From: an uncultured Acidobacteriota bacterium
GTDB taxonomy: Bacteria; Acidobacteriota; Vicinamibacteria; Vicinamibacterales; 2-12-FULL-66-21
Assembly: GCA_963730995.1 (NCBI GenBank)
Contig: CAVSUB010000004.1
Span: 552,900-616,899, forward strand
Reading direction: 5' to 3'
Length of the DNA: 64,000 nucleotides
The notes under the pieces were generated by a model. That model made no database searches. It worked only from the letters and a program-made list of their open reading frames with translations, and was not told the DNA's origin. Both the position numbers and the translations under genes were made by a program. Shown one piece after another: positions 42,420 through 49,043 of the stretch (positions are counted from its first letter, which is position 1; each line of letters opens with the position of its first letter).

Positions 42420-42719
42420 ATGAACATCCAGCAGATGATGAAACAGGCCCAGCAGATGCAGGAACGCATGCAGAAGCAGATGGCCGACATGCGGATCGAG
42501 GCGACGGCCGGCGGTGGCATGGTCACCGTGGTGATGAACGGATCGAAGCAGGTGCTCTCGCTGAAGATCGATCCGGAAGCCGTCTCGAAAGACGATGTGG
42601 AGATGCTTCAGGACCTGATTCTCGCGGCGATCAACGACGCGCAGCGCAAGGCCGACGAGGCGATGTCGCAGCAAATGAGCGGCATGATGGGCGGTATGAA
42701 GATCCCAGGCCTGTTCTGA
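42420..42719 (+). CDS. ybaB: YbaB/EbfC nucleoid-associated protein
   Basis: The 99-aa protein reads [21 protein letters not shown]...[11 protein letters not shown]. It occupies the conserved dnaX-ybaB-recR position. Confidence 0.9.
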
Positions 42720-43315
42720 TGTCGCGTCCTGATCCGCTGGGCAGGCTGATCGAGCAGCTGCAGCGCCTGCCGGGCATCGGGGCGAAAAGCGCGCAGCGGC
42801 TCGCCTTTCACATCCTCAAGACCCCGCGCGAGGAGGTCGAGCGTCTCTCCGACGCGATGCGGGAGGTCAAGGATCGCGTCAGCTACTGCTCGATCTGCAG
42901 CAACATCACCGACGCCGATCCCTGCTACTACTGCACGCACCCGTCGCGCGACCACCGCATCATTTGCGTCGTCGAGGAACCGGAAAACGTGACGGCGGTG
43001 GAGAAGACGCGCGACTTCAGGGGCGTCTATCACGTATTGATGGGCGCGCTGTCGCCTCTGCACGGCGTCGGCCCGGACGACTTGAAGATCAGGGGATTGC
43101 TGACGCGAGTCGCCGCCGGCGGCGTCGAGGAAGTCATCCTCGCGACAAATCCCAATGTCGAAGGGGAAGCGACCGCGATCTATCTGGCGAAGCTGCTGAA
43201 GCCCCTGGGCGTGCGCGTGACGCGTATCGCGATGGGCGTGCCCGTGGGCAGCGACCTCGAATATGCGGACGAGGTCACGATGCACAAGGCGATGGAGGGA
43301 CGGAGGGAGATCTAG
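42719..43315 (+). CDS. recR: recombination protein RecR
   Basis: [17 protein letters not shown] (HhH), the C4 zinc finger [16 protein letters not shown] and a Toprim block are present. Confidence 0.95.
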
Positions 43316-43317
43316 AC

Positions 43318-43527
43318 GGGACTCGGGATCCGGGATCAGGGATCAGGGATGCGGGAGAATCTCCCGTTGGATACATCGACAGAGTCCGCATTTTTACAGC
43401 CGCGGGGCCCCACCCCCGCGGCCACTCGGCGCTCGCTTCGCTCGAACCTGGTTACCGGCGACAGCCTGCTTTCAGTTGGGATTTCGAAGCTCTTACGGAT
43501 CCCTGATCACTGATCCCCGATCCCGAC
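43318..43527. repeat. inverted pair of heptamer arrays (GGGATCN)x6 ... (TGATCCC-type)x4 around a ~135-nt spacer
   Basis: Left array 43318-43359: gggactc gggatcc gggatca gggatca gggatgc gggagaa. Right array 43496-43527: cggatccctgatcactgatccccgatcccgac. The spacer holds the hairpin gccgcgggg-cccca-ccccgcggc. The element lies between convergent recR and the 43532 gene. Confidence 0.9.
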
Positions 43528-43531
43528 ATTA

Positions 43532-45844
43532 TCAGGCAGCTACCGCCTCCTCGTCCCCGAGCAGGTGTCGCAGCTTCAATACCAGGCTCACCCAGTAGAT
43601 GTTCGCGCCGATCGCGGCCAGCACGACGATCCCCGGCAGCGCGTAGATCAGGGCGAACGCCATGATGCCGTAAGGCATGGCTGCGCGCGTGGCGACGAAC
43701 GAGATCTTCCAGATGAGGCGTGACCAGCGTGTCGGCTCGGTCCTGAAGCGCGCCTTGGCGATCGCGTGGAGCCGCTCCGGCTGACCGGCGGTCAGGCGGC
43801 TGCGCAGGTAGATGAGCAGCCCGAACGTGAGGACCATACCTGCCAGCGCTGTCCCGCCGAGCCAGTAGAAAATCGCCCACTGGGTCTGTCGAACGGCGCC
43901 GATCGTGAGCCCGACGAAAATCGCGAGGTAGTAGGAGTAGTCGCCGACGGTCTCGATCCAGCATCCCAGCGCCGACTCCTGATATTTCAACCGGGCGATC
44001 TCGCCATCGCACCCGTCCAGGACGCTGGCGGCAAGCGACAGGAACCCGCCCAGGACGCCCGTCCAGTAGTGCCCGATGCTGAAGAGCCATGCCGCATAGA
44101 ACCCGATCGCGACGAGGATGACGGAGAGCTGGTTGGCCGTGAGCGGCGTCGGGATCAGCGTGATGCTGATTGGCAGCGAGATCCGGCGGTTGAAGCGTGC
44201 GACCCTGGCGTCGGTGTCCTTGTAGCTCGCGCGCCGGATCGTCTGTTCCGCCTCGCCGAGCTCGCCATCCGTCGTGATGCGCAGCGCCAGCCTGGCGCGA
44301 CCTGCCGCGACGTCCAGACCGGATGGCAGCGGCAGCGCACGAGTGCGCCTCTCGCGCAGTTCGGCAAGGATCCGCTCGCGATCGATCGCGACGGCCGCAG
44401 GTACGCGCAACACGCCGCTTTCGGGCCACTCAACTCCGGCCGGCACGTCGACCACGGCGTCGTTTCCACCATGCACGGGCACCGCGCGAGCGGCAGAGAG
44501 AAGGGCATGCGCCACGATGGTTCCGGGGCCAACGACAGAAACGGGCTCGGACGCGTCGAGCGCGCGAACGGCGGCCTGCCACTCGTCTTCATTCGTCGCC
44601 ACGGTGACGCGCCCGCCGAGGTCGCGGACGATCTTGCGCAGCCGTCTGGTCTCGCTCGAGCGGCACTCATTGGAGCTTGGCGCCCACGCCACGATTCGCG
44701 CATAGCCCGCCTTGAGGGACGCGCGTAGCACGCGCTCCGCCAGCGCCAGTCCCGCAAGCCGCGCCGACGGTTTCACCACGACGTCGTCGTCCTGCGGGAA
44801 ATAGAAGATCGTCGGATGGCGGTTCGAGCGCTTGTCGATGCCGTTGCTGGCGTCGGCGGTGATCTCCGTTCGTCGCGCACGCGGATAGATCGCAAGGCCG
44901 AGACCCGCCCAGAACAGGCCTCGCAAGCGTCGTGCGAGAGCGAGTGCGGCTCCGCCGCCCGCAGCGCCGACCGCGGCGGCAGCCGCGAGGCTCGAGGCTT
45001 CCAGCGCTCCAAGGTTGGCAGGGATGAAGGCCGATCCAAAGCTGGCGACCCGGGAGAATGTCTCCACCGCCAGCGCGCCGTTCAGCGTGATCGGCGTCGC
45101 CGTCGACCTCAGAATGACCCAGCACTCGAGCGCCATGCAGACGTACGCGCCGACGGTCGCGACGAGGAGAATCGCGAGGCGTTTCGGATTGCCGCGCACA
45201 AGTTCGAGCGTCTGGCGCTCAACGGCGGAGACGAATCGCGAAATCCTCCGCGACGACCACTGCGTACCCATCGTTTCGTCGAAGCGTCGAACCCAGGATT
45301 GAAAGTACGTGCCGTGGCCCGATACGACGATGGCGGTCATGACCGCGATGAGCCCGCCGGTAATCGCGAACGCACGGAAGACGCGGAACCAGACGGGCGT
45401 GAGCGGCAAGCCGATCAGCGCCAGCACAGATCCCACGCCGACGATGATCGTGGTGCCGACGAGATAGGCGAGGCGCTCGAGGGCGACAGCAGCCGTGGCT
45501 TCGCGCGGATCGATGGAGTCGGCGAGCAGCACGACCTTGAGCGGCTCACCGGCGATTCCGCGCAGCGTCAGATAGCTGAAAGCCTCCGCCGCCAGGCGCA
45601 CCCGCGCGAGTCGCAGGAAGCTGACCTTCAGCGGTCTCGGAAAGCACCAGGCCCACGCCCAGGTGCGCACGAGATGCCAGAGCCCGCTGACGACGAGTAC
45701 GAGCGGGAGGGCGATGCCGAGCTGACGGATCGTTCCGACGGCGAGCCTGAAGTTGATGTAGTAGAGGGTGACGAAGAAGAGAATGACGCCGATGCCGAGC
45801 GCGCCCCAGCGGACGAATCTCCTCTTCGCAGGCTCCGCGCTCAT
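43532..45844 (-). CDS. three-part fusion: flippase-like (LPG-synthase-TM/UPF0104) membrane domain, degenerate nucleotidyltransferase-like linker, CDP-alcohol phosphatidyltransferase
   Basis: The start MSAEPAKRRF overlaps the upstream stop (ATGA). About 330 aa are polytopic and resemble the protein of 47009..48040. The C-terminal motif is DGCDGEIAR-x8-GCWIETVGD, i.e. DxxDGxxAR...GxxxD/ExxxD. Confidence 0.7.
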   Translation of the reverse strand: MSAEPAKRRFVRWGALGIGVILFFVTLYYINFRLAVGTIRQLGIALPLVLVVSGLWHLVRTWAWAWCFPRPLKVSFLRLARVRLAAEAFSYLTLRGIAGEPLKVVLLADSIDPREATAAVALERLAYLVGTTIIVGVGSVLALIGLPLTPVWFRVFRAFAITGGLIAVMTAIVVSGHGTYFQSWVRRFDETMGTQWSSRRISRFVSAVERQTLELVRGNPKRLAILLVATVGAYVCMALECWVILRSTATPITLNGALAVETFSRVASFGSAFIPANLGALEASSLAAAAAVGAAGGGAALALARRLRGLFWAGLGLAIYPRARRTEITADASNGIDKRSNRHPTIFYFPQDDDVVVKPSARLAGLALAERVLRASLKAGYARIVAWAPSSNECRSSETRRLRKIVRDLGGRVTVATNEDEWQAAVRALDASEPVSVVGPGTIVAHALLSAARAVPVHGGNDAVVDVPAGVEWPESGVLRVPAAVAIDRERILAELRERRTRALPLPSGLDVAAGRARLALRITTDGELGEAEQTIRRASYKDTDARVARFNRRISLPISITLIPTPLTANQLSVILVAIGFYAAWLFSIGHYWTGVLGGFLSLAASVLDGCDGEIARLKYQESALGCWIETVGDYSYYLAIFVGLTIGAVRQTQWAIFYWLGGTALAGMVLTFGLLIYLRSRLTAGQPERLHAIAKARFRTEPTRWSRLIWKISFVATRAAMPYGIMAFALIYALPGIVVLAAIGANIYWVSLVLKLRHLLGDEEAVAA

Positions 45845-46653
45845 ACCGCCTCCGCCTGCCCACTCCAGCGCGCACACAACGCGCGCCGGGGGGCCCGGCG
45901 CGATGTCGTCAGCTGGGACTCGGCAGTCTCGAGGTCGGCCACGGTGTCGATGTCGAACCACGCCGCGCCGGCAACGTCGACCGCACGCATGGCGCCGCGC
46001 TGGGCCAGCCTGCGGATGCCGGCGCTGAGTGTCGTGTCGGCCTCGGCGACGGCGGAGTCCAGCGCGGGGAACAGTGATGGATCGCAGACGAACAGGCCGG
46101 TGTCGAGCGCGTCGTATCGGCCGAGCTCCTTGCCGATTGCCGTGATGCGATTTCCGGACAGCCGAACTTTTGTCGCTTCCGCGGCCAGGTCTGGATCGGC
46201 GAGCGAAGAGTCGACGGCGAGCAGCGACTCACCAGGCTGCGCCGGCGTGCGGAGCAGCCTCGAGAGCACCGATGCGTCGAACAGGTGGTCCCCCATCAGA
46301 AGCGCGAAGCGCCGATCCCGGAGAGTTCTGCGCGCAGCGAGAACCGACAGCCCGTTCTCCAGCTGCCAGTCGGGATTGTAGAGAAAGTTCACGAGGGCGC
46401 CGGCCGGGACATTGGCTTCGACGAGGGCGCGCAACGTGCGCGCGCGGTAGCCGAGCACGATGTGAAACGTGTGGATCCCTGCCTCGCGCGCCGTGTGCAG
46501 CGTTCGAAGTATCAGCGGCTGGCCCAGAACAGGCTGCAGGAGCTTTGATTCAGACGATCCGTTCTTGAAGCGATCTCCGTTGCCGGCGGCGAGCACAAGC
46601 GCGTCTCGAACGGTTCGGGTGGCGGCTGCCGGGATATGCGGGATGACGTTCAC
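45841..46653 (-). CDS. sugar/alcohol-phosphate nucleotidyl(cytidylyl)transferase
   Basis: LVLAAGNGDRF (GxGxR motif), ...LLMGDHLF... and ...YDALDTGLF. The start is taken as GTG 46653; the alternative is ATG 46827. Confidence 0.7.
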   Translation of the reverse strand: MNVIPHIPAAATRTVRDALVLAAGNGDRFKNGSSESKLLQPVLGQPLILRTLHTAREAGIHTFHIVLGYRARTLRALVEANVPAGALVNFLYNPDWQLENGLSVLAARRTLRDRRFALLMGDHLFDASVLSRLLRTPAQPGESLLAVDSSLADPDLAAEATKVRLSGNRITAIGKELGRYDALDTGLFVCDPSLFPALDSAVAEADTTLSAGIRRLAQRGAMRAVDVAGAAWFDIDTVADLETAESQLTTSRRAPRRALCARWSGQAEAV

Positions 46654-47008
46654 GGTGACCTCGTCTTGGCGATCGCACGCAGGAGCGAGGTCGGATACCG
46701 CCCCGAACGTTGCAGTCCTGTTGAACGAAACTGACGGGCCGGCACGCGCCGCAACCCTCCTCAAAGCAATTGGACGCGCGGCATGCTTGTAAGGGTGCAG
46801 CGAAGCCCGCGTAGGGCGGAGCGACACAAGCAGAGCCGCTGTCGACCTGCGGCACTATCGAGGGCGTAGAAACGCTGCGCCGAGGCTCACACCGGCGACG
46901 AAAGTGGGGATGCAACAGTGTGGCCGGTAGGTCGTCGTCCTCGACGAGACAACACGTGGGGCTACGAAGCAGTCGGACGGGAAGCGCTCAGCTGTCGGCC
47001 AGCCTGTT

Positions 47009-48040
47009 CTATTCGGGCGTTCGATTCAGCTGCGGATCTGCGAGCACGCTCGTGGCGCTGAGTCCGCGTCTGACCAGCAGCAGGGTCCCGATTCCGGTCC
47101 AGCAGATCATCCGCACTTTCCGCACGAGGCCGAGCGTCGTCCCGAGTGTCGTCCCAAGTCCGAGGACGCCGGTGAGGAACGCCGTCCCGGCTTCGCTCAC
47201 ACCCATTTGAAGCGGAACGAACTTGAAGACGACCGTCAGCAGCCGTCCGGCGGCTTCGACAATGAACGCGATGACCAGCGACGGCTGGGCGCCGAGCAGC
47301 CACCAGAGCGTGATGTAGGCCTCGAGAACTCCAAGCGCGTGAAAGAGCAGTTCGGCGCCGACGATCGGGACCATCAGCGTGCCGCGCCGGCTGGCGAACG
47401 TGTAGATCTGGTCCTCGAGCGCGCGCACAGTCGCGATGCGCCGCTCGCTCGCGGATCCCGGAAGGACCGCGGCGAGCGTTCGGCTGACGACGGCGGGACG
47501 CATCCACAGCAGAACGACCGCGAGTCCAAACGTCACGGCCACTCCCGCGATCGCGACCTCGCCAATCTCGCGCAACTGCCAGGGAATGTCGAAGACGAAG
47601 AGGAGCGCCGCCATTCCCGCTGCGATCATCGCGGCCACCGACAGCGTGTAGAGCACGTTCTCGATCGCGAGTGCGGTCACCGCGGGACCAAGCGGGACTC
47701 CGCGCCGTACGAATGCCGCCTTGGCGGGCTCGCTCGCGAGCGGTCCGAGCGGCAGGAGATTCCCCAGCGCATCGCCGGCGACAACGGCGCCGAAGGCTTC
47801 ACTGAAGCGCAGACGATAAGGCGGTTCGATCGAGAGCATCCACGCCACCGCGCGAAGCGCGAACCGTACACCGCCGAGCAGCACGATCCAGGCGAGCCCC
47901 CAGCCGACCTGCGCGAAGCCGGCACGGATGTCGTCGATGCCGATCCGGCGAACCCACCACACCAACAGCAGCACGCCGCCGACGGTCGTGAGCGCACCAA
48001 CCGCCGTGAGCGGGCGTCCCGGGCGCTGGTCGGCCATCAC
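47009..48040 (-). CDS. flippase-like (LPG-synthase-TM/UPF0104) integral membrane protein
   Basis: 343 aa and polytopic. It reads RRIGIDDIRAGFAQVGWGLAWIVLLGGVRFALRAVAW...GDALGNLLPLGPLASEPAKA, as in this family. Confidence 0.65.
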   Translation of the reverse strand: MMADQRPGRPLTAVGALTTVGGVLLLVWWVRRIGIDDIRAGFAQVGWGLAWIVLLGGVRFALRAVAWMLSIEPPYRLRFSEAFGAVVAGDALGNLLPLGPLASEPAKAAFVRRGVPLGPAVTALAIENVLYTLSVAAMIAAGMAALLFVFDIPWQLREIGEVAIAGVAVTFGLAVVLLWMRPAVVSRTLAAVLPGSASERRIATVRALEDQIYTFASRRGTLMVPIVGAELLFHALGVLEAYITLWWLLGAQPSLVIAFIVEAAGRLLTVVFKFVPLQMGVSEAGTAFLTGVLGLGTTLGTTLGLVRKVRMICWTGIGTLLLVRRGLSATSVLADPQLNRTPE

Positions 48041-48059
48041 GCCATCATATAGTCGGCGG
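48041..48059. promoter_or_regulatory. 19-nt repeat GCCATCATATAGTCGGCGG (copy 1), contains a -10-like AT-rich core next to a start codon
   Basis: It abuts the GTG/ATG start of the 47009..48040 gene. It differs at one base from the copy at 48408-48426. Confidence 0.3.
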
Positions 48060-48137
48060 GTCTGGTCGAGTGTAGAGGTCTGTGGAGGTCCCGCTGCGGT
48101 TCGTGGTGGTTCGCGTGCGAGATTCCGCGAAGTACGC

Positions 48138-48344
48138 TCAGCGCTTCTTCACTGTCTTGCGTGCGGCCGTCTTGCGCGCGGCCTTCTTGCGGGCCGTCTT
48201 CTCGGTCTTCGAAGTCTTCGCCAGGTCGGCGCGGTGGGCGCGCTCGTACGTCTGGATGTCCTTGAAGCGTCCGCCCGCGTCGCGGACGGCATAGAGCTTC
48301 TTGCCTTTGCTACTGCGATGAGTGGTGCGCCGGGCCTTCGCCAT
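48138..48344 (-). CDS. small lysine/arginine-rich basic protein
   Basis: The 68-aa protein reads MAKARRTTHRSSKGKKLYAVRDAGGRFKDIQTYERAHRADL... followed by a KKAARK repeat tail. I recall it as a small conserved family, but its function is unknown. Confidence 0.5.
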   Translation of the reverse strand: MAKARRTTHRSSKGKKLYAVRDAGGRFKDIQTYERAHRADLAKTSKTEKTARKKAARKTAARKTVKKR

Positions 48345-48407
48345 GGAACCTCCAGATCGCCCGCATCATGCACGATTTGGTAGTGCGGGCGCAACCGCCC
48401 GTATCGC

Positions 48408-48426
48408 GCCATCATATAATCGGCGG
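48408..48426. promoter_or_regulatory. 19-nt repeat GCCATCATATAATCGGCGG (copy 2) with TATAAT 8 nt before the ATG of the next gene
   Basis: TATAAT lies at 48415-48420 and the ATG at 48429. Confidence 0.3.
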
Positions 48427-48428
48427 CT

Positions 48429-49043
48429 ATGCTCCCCGCGTCGCTTCAGACCCCCGCCGCGATCGTGCTCGTGGCCGGCGGCCTGTTGTCCTGCTTCGCC
48501 GGCCACCGGGTTTTCCGTGTCGTGCTCGGGATTTACGGCTTCATTCTGGGTGCGCTGCTGGCCAGCTCGTTCATGGGCGCCGAGCAGACGCTCTGGATGA
48601 TCGTGGCGGCGTTGGCAGGCGGACTCGCGGGATCGGTGATCCTGATCCTGGCGTATTTCGTCGGCGTTGCGCTCATCGGTGCCGGCGTCGGCGCGCTCAC
48701 GGCGAACGTCGCCTGGGCGGCCTTCGGCCGCGAGCCAGGAATGTGGGCGGTCATTCTGCTGGCGATCGCGGGCGCGCTCGCAGCGCTCGCGCTTCAGCGC
48801 TACGTGATCATTCTCTCGACCGCGTTCGGCGGAGCGTGGACGGCGATCGTCGGCGGCCTCGCGCTCGCAGGCGATCGCGTGGCAAATCAGGCGGCGTCGA
48901 AAAACGACGTCTGGTTGGCGTATCCCTTGAATCCGGCACCCGGGCAGCGCTGGGTGCTTCTCGTCTGGTTCGTGATGGGGTTGATCGGCGCGTTCGTTCA
49001 GCTCGGCATCACGGCCAAAGGAGGCAAGCAGCGATCGGCGTAG
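48429..49043 (+). CDS. DUF4203-like multi-TM membrane protein
   Basis: Six or so Gly/Ala-rich TM helices, with FRVVLGIYGFILGALLAS near the N-terminus. Confidence 0.55.
   Translation: MLPASLQTPAAIVLVAGGLLSCFAGHRVFRVVLGIYGFILGALLASSFMGAEQTLWMIVAALAGGLAGSVILILAYFVGVALIGAGVGALTANVAWAAFGREPGMWAVILLAIAGALAALALQRYVIILSTAFGGAWTAIVGGLALAGDRVANQAASKNDVWLAYPLNPAPGQRWVLLVWFVMGLIGAFVQLGITAKGGKQRSA

Follow-up and report, generated by a model that had tools for sequence, protein, structure and literature searches.

Two overlapping genes of an uncultured acidobacterium, here termed B and C, may constitute a Kennedy-type CDP-inositol pathway that provides the headgroup of a membrane lipid and carries a built-in flippase-like domain. 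Judged from homology and gene context, we hold the chance that this reading is right to be about even. The neighbouring gene A is a syntenic neighbour and not an obligate member of the B-C module.

Layout and domains of the locus

The window, by which we mean the whole 64,000-nucleotide stretch of DNA that was analysed, was predicted to hold three co-oriented genes, and these were found as open reading frames on the minus strand:

47009-48040, minus strand: gene A, stand-alone UPF0104 membrane protein, 343 aa
46654-47008, minus strand: A-B spacer, ~355 nt
45841-46653, minus strand: gene B, IPCT-like cytidylyltransferase, 270 aa, GTG start
46570-46584, minus strand: G-loop GNGDR of gene B (GxGxR motif)
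45841-45844, minus strand: ATGA in which the stop codon of B overlaps the start codon of C, translational coupling
43532-45844, minus strand: gene C, three-domain membrane fusion, 770 aa
44885-45826, minus strand: C residues ~7-320, UPF0104/LPG_synthase_TM domain, flippase-class, ~8 TM helices
44225-44812, minus strand: C residues 345-540, degenerate cytidylyltransferase-like (CT-like) cytosolic domain, GxGxR loop absent
43535-44224, minus strand: C residues 541-770, six-TM CDP-alcohol phosphotransferase (CDP-AP) of AF2299/DIPPS type
43940-44017, minus strand: CDP-AP motif DGCDGEIARLKYQESALGCWIETVGD, translation checked

The ATGA overlap and the intact GxGxR loop of B had both been foreseen in the original prediction, and a GGAGG sequence lies immediately 5' of the overlap. 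The reading frame of B spans 45841-46827, with the GTG start at 46653 backed by homologues and by the Pfam match (NTP_transf_3, 51.2 bits). In sequence comparisons gene B is nearest to three solved inositol-1-phosphate cytidylyltransferases (IPCTs): its top three PDB matches were 2xme (67.6 bits), 4mnd (66.3 bits) and 4jd0 (60 bits), and the fourth dropped to 28 bits, a margin of ~35-40 bits over other nucleotidyltransferases. The top NCBIfam model was likewise the IPCT half of IPCT/DIPPS (115.5 bits, next family 56.9), at a score far under the equivalog cut-off of 580.

Gene A and the N-terminal domain of C were both expected to be of the LPG-synthase-TM/UPF0104 type, and domain HMMs scored them as such (PF03706, cut-off 33.4: 62.9 bits over profile positions 7-290 of 302 for A, and 54.2 bits over positions 3-295 for the domain of C). 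Gene A also matched HpnL with 85.4 bits, below its cut-off of 195.65. The ~8 TM helices of C were read from the helix pattern of the AF2 model, and a Foldseek search with the UPF0104 model gave no link to MprF. For the nucleotidyltransferase-like linker suggested in C, which is 770 aa long and not 771, the fold was upheld and the sequence agreed only weakly. Residues 345-540 were modelled with pLDDT 84-91, and Foldseek covered the CT-like and TM domains jointly on AF2299 (E 1e-6) and also matched the KdsB, IspD and MurU cytidylyltransferases; in sequence there was a local match, ARLAGLPLAERVLRAALRAGY, to AF2299 residues 42-63, and hhalign matched the domain weakly to the profile of B. The G-loop in the fused CT domain is kept only in truly bifunctional relatives.

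The C-terminal domain scored 22.4 bits for CDP-OH_P_transf (cut-off 22) and matched AF2299 (4o6m) at E 2e-17 with phmmer and 1.4e-20 with a profile, and AfDIPPS (4mnd) at E 8e-8, whereas the BT1523-type PIPS model matched C only at E 0.053. The motif DGCDGEIAR-x8-G-x3-E-x3-D (D610-x2-D613-G-x2-A-R618-x8-G627-x3-E631-x3-D635) does not vary among 36 homologues that are 65-86% identical, including the predicted Glu at the third acidic position. The homology of B and C agrees with the kinship to IPCT/DIPPS that had been proposed for this pair.

The alcohol substrate

It had been thought that the substrate could not be read from the sequence, but relatives of the module point to inositol-1-phosphate. 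In the G187 operon an inositol-phosphate synthase (MIPS) gene lies directly upstream of a B-like gene, followed by UPF0104 and CDP-AP genes. This B-like gene is 40% identical to B (E 2e-44), and identity to B is 40-42% for the B-like genes of G187 and a Silvibacterium MAG. In G024, MIPS adjoins a CDP-AP of the window's clade. The window's own genome encodes MIPS, which does not stand beside the module in the window. In the suggested check for co-occurrence, MIPS was present in 18 of the 19 genomes that carry a CDP-AP of this kind, compared with 158 of the other 282 (Fisher p = 4e-4, kinship ignored); this is weak evidence because MIPS is common in the phylum (58%). The homology of B, the gene context in the relatives and this co-occurrence lead us to read inositol-1-phosphate as the probable substrate.

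The same Kennedy-type logic could instead serve another alcohol, such as glycerol-phosphate, glycerate-phosphate, an aminocyclitol or another polyol, and yield a different lipid headgroup. COG1213-type cytidylyltransferases are promiscuous in the kind of substrate they take, and the many phospho-alcohols they accept include 3-phosphoglycerate, phosphocholine and phosphoglutamine (bioRxiv 10.1101/2025.01.09.632243); the ligand bound by AF2299 was CDP-glycerol (PMC4634129). The unlinked MIPS and the sub-threshold equivalog score of B would also fit, as would the oxidoreductase and aminotransferase found alongside the CDP-AP in the relative G024, which suggest a modified cyclitol. The three top solved relatives of B are nevertheless all IPCTs, the G187 B-like gene directly follows MIPS, and MIPS co-occurs with the CDP-AP; we regard a different alcohol as unlikely, while taking it seriously.

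Conservation of the module and its product

B-C is a conserved two-gene, translationally coupled module. The two genes adjoin or overlap across Vicinamibacterales relatives, in G248 and in a second fused clade from Terriglobia and Binatia, and their tight juxtaposition is repeated in G248 and L065-L070. In the second clade C is 30% and B 42% identical, and the partners are a CarboxypepD_reg/TonB-type outer-membrane barrel, a DUF5686/TP_0789(LolA)-like protein and an EEP phosphoesterase. An unfused module in the order B, UPF0104, CT-like+CDP-AP occurs in three other Acidobacteriota (G011, G291 and G187), with a single TGA parting the UPF0104 and CDP-AP halves in G011, and in G098 the CDP-AP adjoins UPF0104. 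Linkage or fusion of UPF0104 to the window's CDP-AP clade recurs in independent contexts. Soil-metatranscriptome contigs span the genes and the B/C junction, with a flat coverage that could be DNA carry-over. Phosphatidylinositol was found in an acidobacterial isolate (PMC12935467), and both types of Bacteroidetes inositol-lipid cluster have LPG-synthase-like and carboxypeptidase-regulatory-like neighbours (PMC9246714).

The product could instead be a soluble phosphodiester if B made CDP-inositol or CDP-glycerol and C transferred it onto inositol-1-phosphate or glycerol-3-phosphate, giving a compatible solute precursor of the di-myo-inositol-phosphate (DIP) or glycerophosphoinositol type, with UPF0104 as anchor, regulator or exporter. 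AF2299 and DIPPS, the nearest solved relatives of C, use soluble substrates and are stated to process no lipids, and the six-TM architecture that they share with C has been tied to soluble acceptors (PMC4634129). Some C homologues carry the JGI label CDP-inositol inositolphosphotransferase, and where the genome's PIPS-like gene has its RxR and ERPER sites, C keeps the aligned arginines. In PIPS structures these sites presumably bind the acceptor phosphate and, if so, the acceptor of C could be phosphorylated. Classical loci with MIPS, IMPase and bifunctional IPCT/DIPPS do occur in the phylum, the DIP-type locus of G164 carrying the IMPase, but they lack UPF0104 and are split from the window's clade in the CDP-AP tree (support 99/97). 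In the UPF0104-coupled loci read, the CDP-AP never had a phosphatase next to it, and the organisms bearing the module are soil and rhizosphere mesophiles, whereas DIP is to our knowledge known from (hyper)thermophiles only. With the repeated coupling to UPF0104 and the barrel and LolA-like genes of the second clade also against it, a soluble product appears improbable.

Gene A had been counted as part of the cluster and might be a second, obligate flippase subunit alongside B and C, since A and the N-terminal domain of C fall in one Pfam family, and A is adjoining and co-oriented in 28 of 28 close Vicinamibacterales loci whose sequence reaches far enough to tell. The TM198/OsmC and recR flanks are common to these loci too, so the adjacency may be inherited. 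Orthologues of A with 54-55% identity are kept in G407, G321 and G238, all of which lack B-C; the order in G407 is TM198-A-recR, and in G321 different genes fill the recR-to-A interval. In G248, B-C sits in another context beside an integrase, with the A homologue on a separate contig. The unfused and second-clade modules contain no second UPF0104 gene, and the spacer that separates A from B varies in length between relatives, matched no Rfam family and gave no match above chance in a promoter/terminator search. Because G407 and G321 keep A without B-C, and B-C of G248 sits elsewhere without A, we place A outside the module. Gene A is a UPF0104 paralogue of its own, conserved in the family, and happens to lie beside the B-C insertion site; a three-gene system is quite improbable.

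In G291 and G229 the module is accompanied by large proteins of the alkaline-phosphatase superfamily, which includes the LtaS, EptA and OpgB transferases; the window's own genome has no homologues of these partners. Those partners, the barrels of the second clade and the MIPS-dependent inositol of the Bacteroides thetaiotaomicron capsule (PMC9246714) would suit an acceptor that is a lipid-linked envelope intermediate or glycoconjugate (lipid A-core, undecaprenyl-linked glycan or capsule precursor) to which phospho-inositol is added before flipping, but no glycosyltransferase, Wzx/Wzy or lipid A gene adjoins in the window, and we consider this the least probable reading. Orthologues in a capsule or teichoic-acid locus, which the original prediction had named as a possible refutation, were not seen among the loci examined.

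Known systems and the proposed pathway

The comparison supports the earlier remark that no characterised system with this three-part fusion was known. The putative 'alternative' inositol-lipid cluster of Bacteroides vulgatus and Prevotella (Heaver et al. 2022, PMC9246714) follows the scheme proposed for B-C, with an NTP-transferase proposed to form CDP-inositol and a CDP-alcohol phosphatidyltransferase proposed to act with it on diacylglycerol (DAG). By its described gene content it too has an LPG-synthase-like (UPF0104) gene nearby, and of the modules compared with it only those of the second fused clade match its carboxypeptidase-regulatory-like neighbour. B-C differs in that UPF0104 is fused to the transferase via a degenerate CT-like domain, a HAD hydrolase is absent, MIPS is unlinked in the window and the phylum is another.

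AF2299 of Archaeoglobus fulgidus (4o6m, 4o6n, 4q7c), the top sequence and fold match, resembles C in its degenerate N-terminal CT-like domain, its six-TM CDP-AP and the identical DGCDGEIARLK, but its third acidic position is Asp and it carries no UPF0104 domain. AF2299 has been co-crystallised with CDP-glycerol, and we know of no established physiological reaction for it. The bifunctional IPCT/DIPPS enzymes of the DIP pathway (4mnd, 2xme, 4jd0) perform the same two chemistries, forming CDP-inositol from CTP and inositol-1-phosphate before CDP-alcohol transfer. Those enzymes join an active IPCT to the transferase in one chain and yield a soluble solute, whereas in B-C the fused CT-like domain has lost its G-loop, the active-type cytidylyltransferase would be the separate gene B, and the transferase belongs to a distinct, UPF0104-coupled clade. 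With MprF, the aminoacyl-phosphatidylglycerol synthase/flippase, C shares a design in which a headgroup synthase is joined to a flippase-class domain of the LPG_synthase_TM type, but the MprF synthase is an unrelated aminoacyl-tRNA-dependent DUF2156 domain absent from C, and the synthase/TM order and the chemistry differ. The bacterial PIP synthase route (CDP-DAG plus inositol-1-phosphate, then a phosphatase) uses the same superfamily and headgroup precursor as B-C with donor and acceptor roles swapped.

In the proposed CDP-inositol pathway, B would join CTP and L-myo-inositol-1-phosphate, supplied by the genome's MIPS, to form CDP-inositol. The CDP-AP domain of C would then transfer phospho-inositol at the cytoplasmic face to a membrane-resident alcohol, releasing CMP. 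Diacylglycerol would be the simplest acceptor and give phosphatidylinositol, and ceramide or another lipid is also possible; the genome already holds a PIPS-like gene (C13:1392959-1393546, 133 bits), so a second route to plain phosphatidylinositol would be redundant. As in AF2299, the degenerate CT-like domain may serve as a structural scaffold, and B may dock onto it. The fused UPF0104 domain may present the lipid acceptor or move the product to the outer leaflet, a role suggested solely by membership of the class to which the flippase part of MprF belongs and by the recurrent linkage. If this pathway is correct, an inositol-phosphate membrane lipid would be built and moved by a two-gene module in a soil acidobacterium.

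Organization and conservation of the locus

The window (G+C ~65%) corresponds to C4:552900-616899 of G000, an 8.3 Mb Vicinamibacterales (Acidobacteriota) genome in 13 contigs. Three minus-strand reading frames were found between recR and a TM198-family gene:

42719-43315, plus strand, recR, flanking the block
43532-45844, minus strand, gene C, 770 residues
43940-44017, minus strand, CDP-alcohol phosphotransferase (CDP-AP) signature of gene C, DGCDGEIAR-x8-G-x3-E-x3-D
GTG start at 46653, minus strand, gene B, 270 aa, with an NTP_transf_3 match
47009-48040, minus strand, gene A, 343 aa, a full-length LPG_synthase_TM/UPF0104 protein
48429-49043, plus strand, TM198-family gene, the other flank

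ORF calls and Pfam matches bore out the original prediction of three frames and their domains, small details aside. The three-part build of gene C stood, with its length corrected from 771 to 770 aa, and B does lie beside A, with its start amended to one backed by homologues and a spacer of ~355 nt between the two genes. The stop of B and the start of C overlap as ATGA, with GGAGG upstream. An Rfam E-value scan of 43000-48600 for a riboswitch or leader RNA in the A-B spacer gave chance-level matches only, and a promoter and terminator scan revealed none exceeding shuffled expectation. Soil metatranscriptome contigs matched A, B and C at 98% identity or more, one of them spanning the B/C junction (45651-46191); depth was flat with the spacer covered as well, and DNA carry-over is possible. 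Over 43300-48300 the metatranscriptome runs X1 and X2 gave the same contigs at the same depths, being duplicate filings of a single data set. Depth was high (~80-88) at 43300-43466, directly downstream of recR.

We found the order OsmC, TM198, A, B, C, recR, ybaB, dnaX in 30 public loci at 60-77% identity, all from Acidobacteriota or Vicinamibacterales metagenome-assembled genomes (MAGs) except for one contig labelled Dehalococcoidia. Such synteny is inherited as a block and therefore says little on function. The Dehalococcoidia-labelled contig (JBAROU010000096.1) carries the Vicinamibacterales TM198-A-B-C synteny at ~60% identity and is probably mis-binned. In five MAG copies (L014, L019, L024, L025 and L030) the fusion gene was split by frame changes or a ~300-nt gap, probably reflecting long-read assembly errors rather than pseudogenes.

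The original prediction of a three-gene A-B-C unit did not hold. When 151 genomes of the order were sampled, the fusion was patchy, occurring in 7 of 12 members of the window's family and in two further genomes (G388 and G248). One relative, G407, has TM198, A, recR and dnaX and lacks B-C, and another, G321, has an MFS or cytochrome-c gene between recR and A; their gene A orthologues are 54-55% identical. Conversely, G248 carries an overlapping B-C pair near an integrase and unrelated genes, with its A homologue on a separate contig. Because of these three arrangements, we conclude that gene A is conserved in the family and adjoins an insertion point that varies, and that B-C, a mobile module, is the unit. 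Compared with contigs L062 and L063, the interval from recR to A (43316-47008 in the window) varies within the family, holding B-C here, nothing in G407 and the MFS or cytochrome-c gene in G321.

Domain architecture of gene C and affinities of gene B

Pfam analysis of gene C gave LPG_synthase_TM at residues ~7-320 and CDP-OH_P_transf at ~570-675, with zero matches at residues 345-540. The C-terminal match to the CDP-AP family (PF01066) was barely over the cut-off (22.4 against 22), and the AlphaFold2 model placed about six transmembrane (TM) helices beyond residue 570. Of the eight residues of the signature D-x2-D-G-x2-A-R-x8-G-x3-D-x3-D, seven are kept, with Glu631 standing in for the third Asp, as had been claimed. 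Across 36 aligned full-length homologues (65-86% identity) no motif residue varied, Glu631 included; this Glu is a conservative replacement that has become fixed, rather than evidence of decay. Glu also occupies this site in five other relatives, and Asp in six aligned relatives and the genome's own phosphatidylinositol-phosphate synthase (PIPS)-like gene. Among solved structures, the C-terminal part was closest to the Archaeoglobus fulgidus protein AF2299 (PDB 4o6m; E 2e-17 by phmmer, 1.4e-20 by profile), with DGCDGEIARLK identical, followed by A. fulgidus DIPPS, the transferase of the di-myo-inositol-phosphate (DIP) pathway. Where the PIPS-like protein has its RxR and ERPER sites, gene C keeps arginines. 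Assignment of gene C as a PIP synthase was rejected (E 0.053 on NF052561).

The original prediction had described the middle of gene C as a degenerate nucleotidyltransferase-like linker, and structure prediction supported this. The AlphaFold2 model was of moderate confidence overall (pLDDT 72), with an alpha/beta middle domain at 84-91. Foldseek aligned the middle and TM domains together on AF2299 (E 1e-6, 429 columns across both domains), and the middle domain alone on the KdsB, IspD and MurU cytidylyltransferases. A local motif in the middle domain, ARLAGLPLAERVLRAALRAGY, matches AF2299 residues 42-63. The GxGxR loop is absent from this cytidylyltransferase-like (CT-like) domain. Using hhalign, the B profile matched it only weakly, over the stretch that matches AF2299 (32 columns, probability 25%), too weakly to prove from sequence that the domain is a paralogue of B; the fold evidence is stronger. 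An N-terminal CT-like domain has been described for AF2299 and DIPPS (Clarke et al., PMC4634129), and gene C shares the AF2299-type architecture in that a degenerate cytosolic CT-like domain directly precedes a six-TM CDP-AP. On the strength of these fold and motif matches and the described CT-like domain, gene C is a UPF0104 domain joined to an AF2299-type protein.

Profile searches likewise confirmed the UPF0104 identity of both A and the N-terminal domain of C, which matched LPG_synthase_TM (PF03706) over nearly the whole profile at 62.9 and 54.2 bits, respectively (cut-off 33.4). Neither protein is an MprF, as no aminoacyl-PG synthase domain (DUF2156/LPG_synthase_C) was matched in A or C by Pfam. 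Although the gene A model was of good quality (pLDDT 87, pTM 0.85), a Foldseek search of the PDB for an MprF-like fold gave no match with E below 0.06. HpnL (TIGR03476) was also rejected, with scores of 85.4 for A and 51.4 for C against a cut-off of 195.65 and no hopanoid genes in the neighbourhood.

The best solved relatives of gene B were three inositol-1-phosphate cytidylyltransferases (IPCTs), 2xme from A. fulgidus (67.6 bits), 4mnd (66.3 bits) and 4jd0 (60 bits), the last of which we take to be the T. maritima IPCT; the next nucleotidyltransferase was MurU at 28 bits. In NCBIfam it scored highest with the IPCT half of IPCT/DIPPS (115.5 bits), the runner-up family reaching 56.9, and its G-loop is intact (GNGDR). 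Against the equivalog cut-off of 580 for bifunctional IPCT/DIPPS (NF041135), C scored 57.6 and B's 115.5 is far under, and neither is assigned to that family.

Relatives of the module and a probable link to inositol

A neighbourhood census of ~20 loci, read from ORFs and Pfam, revealed an unfused version in the same order (B, UPF0104, CT-like plus CDP-AP) in other classes of the phylum, in G011 and G291. In G011 a lone TGA divides the UPF0104 and CT-like plus CDP-AP halves, and in G098 the CDP-AP gene adjoins UPF0104. In two unrelated acidobacterial lineages, represented by G291 and G229 (L046 2905-8185; L049 6028-11040), the unfused module is accompanied by a protein of ~800 aa without a Pfam match and one of ~900 aa of the alkaline-phosphatase superfamily (Phosphodiest/Sulfatase), neither with a homologue in the window's genome. 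G011 also encodes, upstream of its unfused module (L045 11703-13785), a 365-aa nucleotidyltransferase and a 332-aa protein that, with its HRDLMSRNL motif, resembles a kinase of the APH/choline-kinase type; the two could form an AmgK/MurU-like pair, or an alcohol kinase here could supply the pathway.

Several of these neighbourhoods involve inositol-1-phosphate synthase (MIPS). An operon in G187 encodes MIPS, a protein 40% identical to B (E 2e-44), LPG_synthase_TM and CT-like plus CDP-AP. Together with the solved IPCT relatives and the G-loop, this indirect evidence points to gene B as a putative IPCT. In G024 (L059, G024:C7, 6202-13081) MIPS adjoins a CT-like plus CDP-AP gene of the same kind as the window's, in a cluster that also holds a Gfo/Idh/MocA oxidoreductase, a class-III aminotransferase, a 302-aa ATP-grasp-looking protein and an NTP-transferase; the cluster may specify a pathway to an aminocyclitol-phosphate, as headgroup or as solute. 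In G164 and G047, MIPS (with IMPase in G164) lies next to a bifunctional IPCT/DIPPS that matches NTP_transf_3, keeps the GxGxR loop and has no UPF0104. That arrangement is of the classical DIP type, whereas the window's module is UPF0104-fused and has lost the G-loop in the fused domain. In a small tree of transferase domains, the G164 and G047 proteins and the genome's PIPS-like protein were split with support 99/97 from ten degenerate-CT proteins, including those of the window, G187 and G024.

Co-occurrence with inositol-phosphate supply, proposed earlier as a check, was also found: across the phylum sample MIPS was present in 18 of 19 genomes with such a CDP-AP compared with 158 of 282 others (Fisher p = 4e-4, kinship ignored). 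Two genes of the window's genome bear on this supply and on classical lipid synthesis:

C9:340409-341746, MIPS, on a contig other than the window's
C13:1392959-1393546, stand-alone PIPS-like gene, 114-133 bits on PIPS and AIPS models, under the equivalog cut-offs

The neighbours of this MIPS were uninformative.

An exhaustive search (E below 1e-30) returned 172 representative clusters at 50% identity, among them ~800-aa fusions only 30-32% identical to C. At 90% identity this second clade comprises at least 196 clusters, some named Silvibacterium sp. and Candidatus Binatia MAGs, and the first more than 760. A conserved second-clade operon on Silvibacterium-like and Binatia contigs (L065-L070) encodes a CarboxypepD_reg/TonB-type outer-membrane barrel, a DUF5686/TP_0789(LolA)-like protein, a B-like protein 42% identical to B, the fusion and Exo_endo_phos. 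The five genes look as though they both make and traffic an outer-membrane lipid.

Heaver et al. (PMC9246714) described for Bacteroides vulgatus and Prevotella a putative "alternative" inositol-lipid cluster, as yet unconfirmed, in which MIPS has nearby a CDP-alcohol phosphatidyltransferase, a HAD hydrolase and an NTP-transferase that is proposed to form CDP-inositol. By their account, LPG-synthase-like (BT_1521) and carboxypeptidase-regulatory-like (BT_1527) neighbours are common to both Bacteroidetes cluster types. Judged by gene class, the window holds an NTP-transferase, a CDP-AP and UPF0104 (here fused), but lacks a nearby HAD hydrolase and has MIPS on another contig, though MIPS adjoins the module in G187. 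The accessory gene classes of the Bacteroidetes clusters recur with the B-C module in Acidobacteriota and Binatia, which provides the strongest outside support for an inositol-lipid reading.

Proposed mechanism and significance

We infer a mechanism of four steps. B would make CDP-inositol from CTP and Ins-1-P supplied by the genome's MIPS; at the cytoplasmic face, the transferase domain of gene C would pass phospho-inositol to a membrane alcohol; the CT-like domain would act as a scaffold; and the UPF0104 domain would present the acceptor or flip the product. The predicted topology is consistent with this: with ~8 TM helices in the N-terminal domain and a basic N-terminal end, the CT-like domain would be cytoplasmic, like that of AF2299.

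The model is weakest on the identity of the acceptor. According to PMC4634129, AF2299 and DIPPS do not process lipids, and the PIPS-like gene together with MIPS suggests that the organism can already make phosphatidylinositol (PI) by the classical route. For these reasons, and given the kept arginines, the product may differ from plain PI: it may be an envelope glycoconjugate, an inositol-phosphoceramide, or an existing lipid to which a second phospho-inositol is added. PI has been reported in small amounts in an acidobacterial isolate (PMC12935467); nothing relevant on Vicinamibacteria polar lipids was found in the literature searched. The window's genome also holds PgsA-, PssA- and Pcs-like genes. 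In the pgsA-like gene (G000:C13:530978-531722), the PF01066 match is split between two frames that overlap (profile positions 1-104 and 98-151), indicating a frameshift or assembly error in an essential lipid gene.

It is very likely that B makes a CDP-alcohol that gene C transfers. The alcohol is probably inositol, and a lipid product is favoured slightly less strongly; for the statement combining all three, the balance is even. The finding of B-C is real and the family is uncharacterised. The fusion represents a variation on both the IPCT/DIPPS-AF2299 theme and the CDP-inositol route proposed for Bacteroidetes.

Bacterial inositol lipids are thought to be rare. To our knowledge, their only proven route uses CDP-diacylglycerol and PIP synthase, and a CDP-inositol (Kennedy-type) route has so far only been proposed, from Bacteroidetes genomics. 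The B-C family offers a compact, heterologously expressible two-gene test object for the latter. UPF0104 is a very large family of which MprF is, as far as we know, essentially the sole characterised member, and its physical linkage here to a defined synthase could give it a second assignable substrate. The B-C family is abundant in soil and rhizosphere metagenomes and, because its presence varies between close relatives, may represent an envelope trait that is adaptive for major soil bacteria. More tentatively, and with considerable doubt, B-C could be the core of a widespread undescribed system in which an inositol-phosphate lipid is made by a reverse route (CDP-inositol plus lipid alcohol) and exported by the fused flippase-like domain, with the sister clade delivering it via LolA-like and outer-membrane-barrel partners. 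If true, a Kennedy pathway for inositol lipids like that of eukaryotes, complete with its own trafficking, would exist in abundant soil Acidobacteriota and Binatia.
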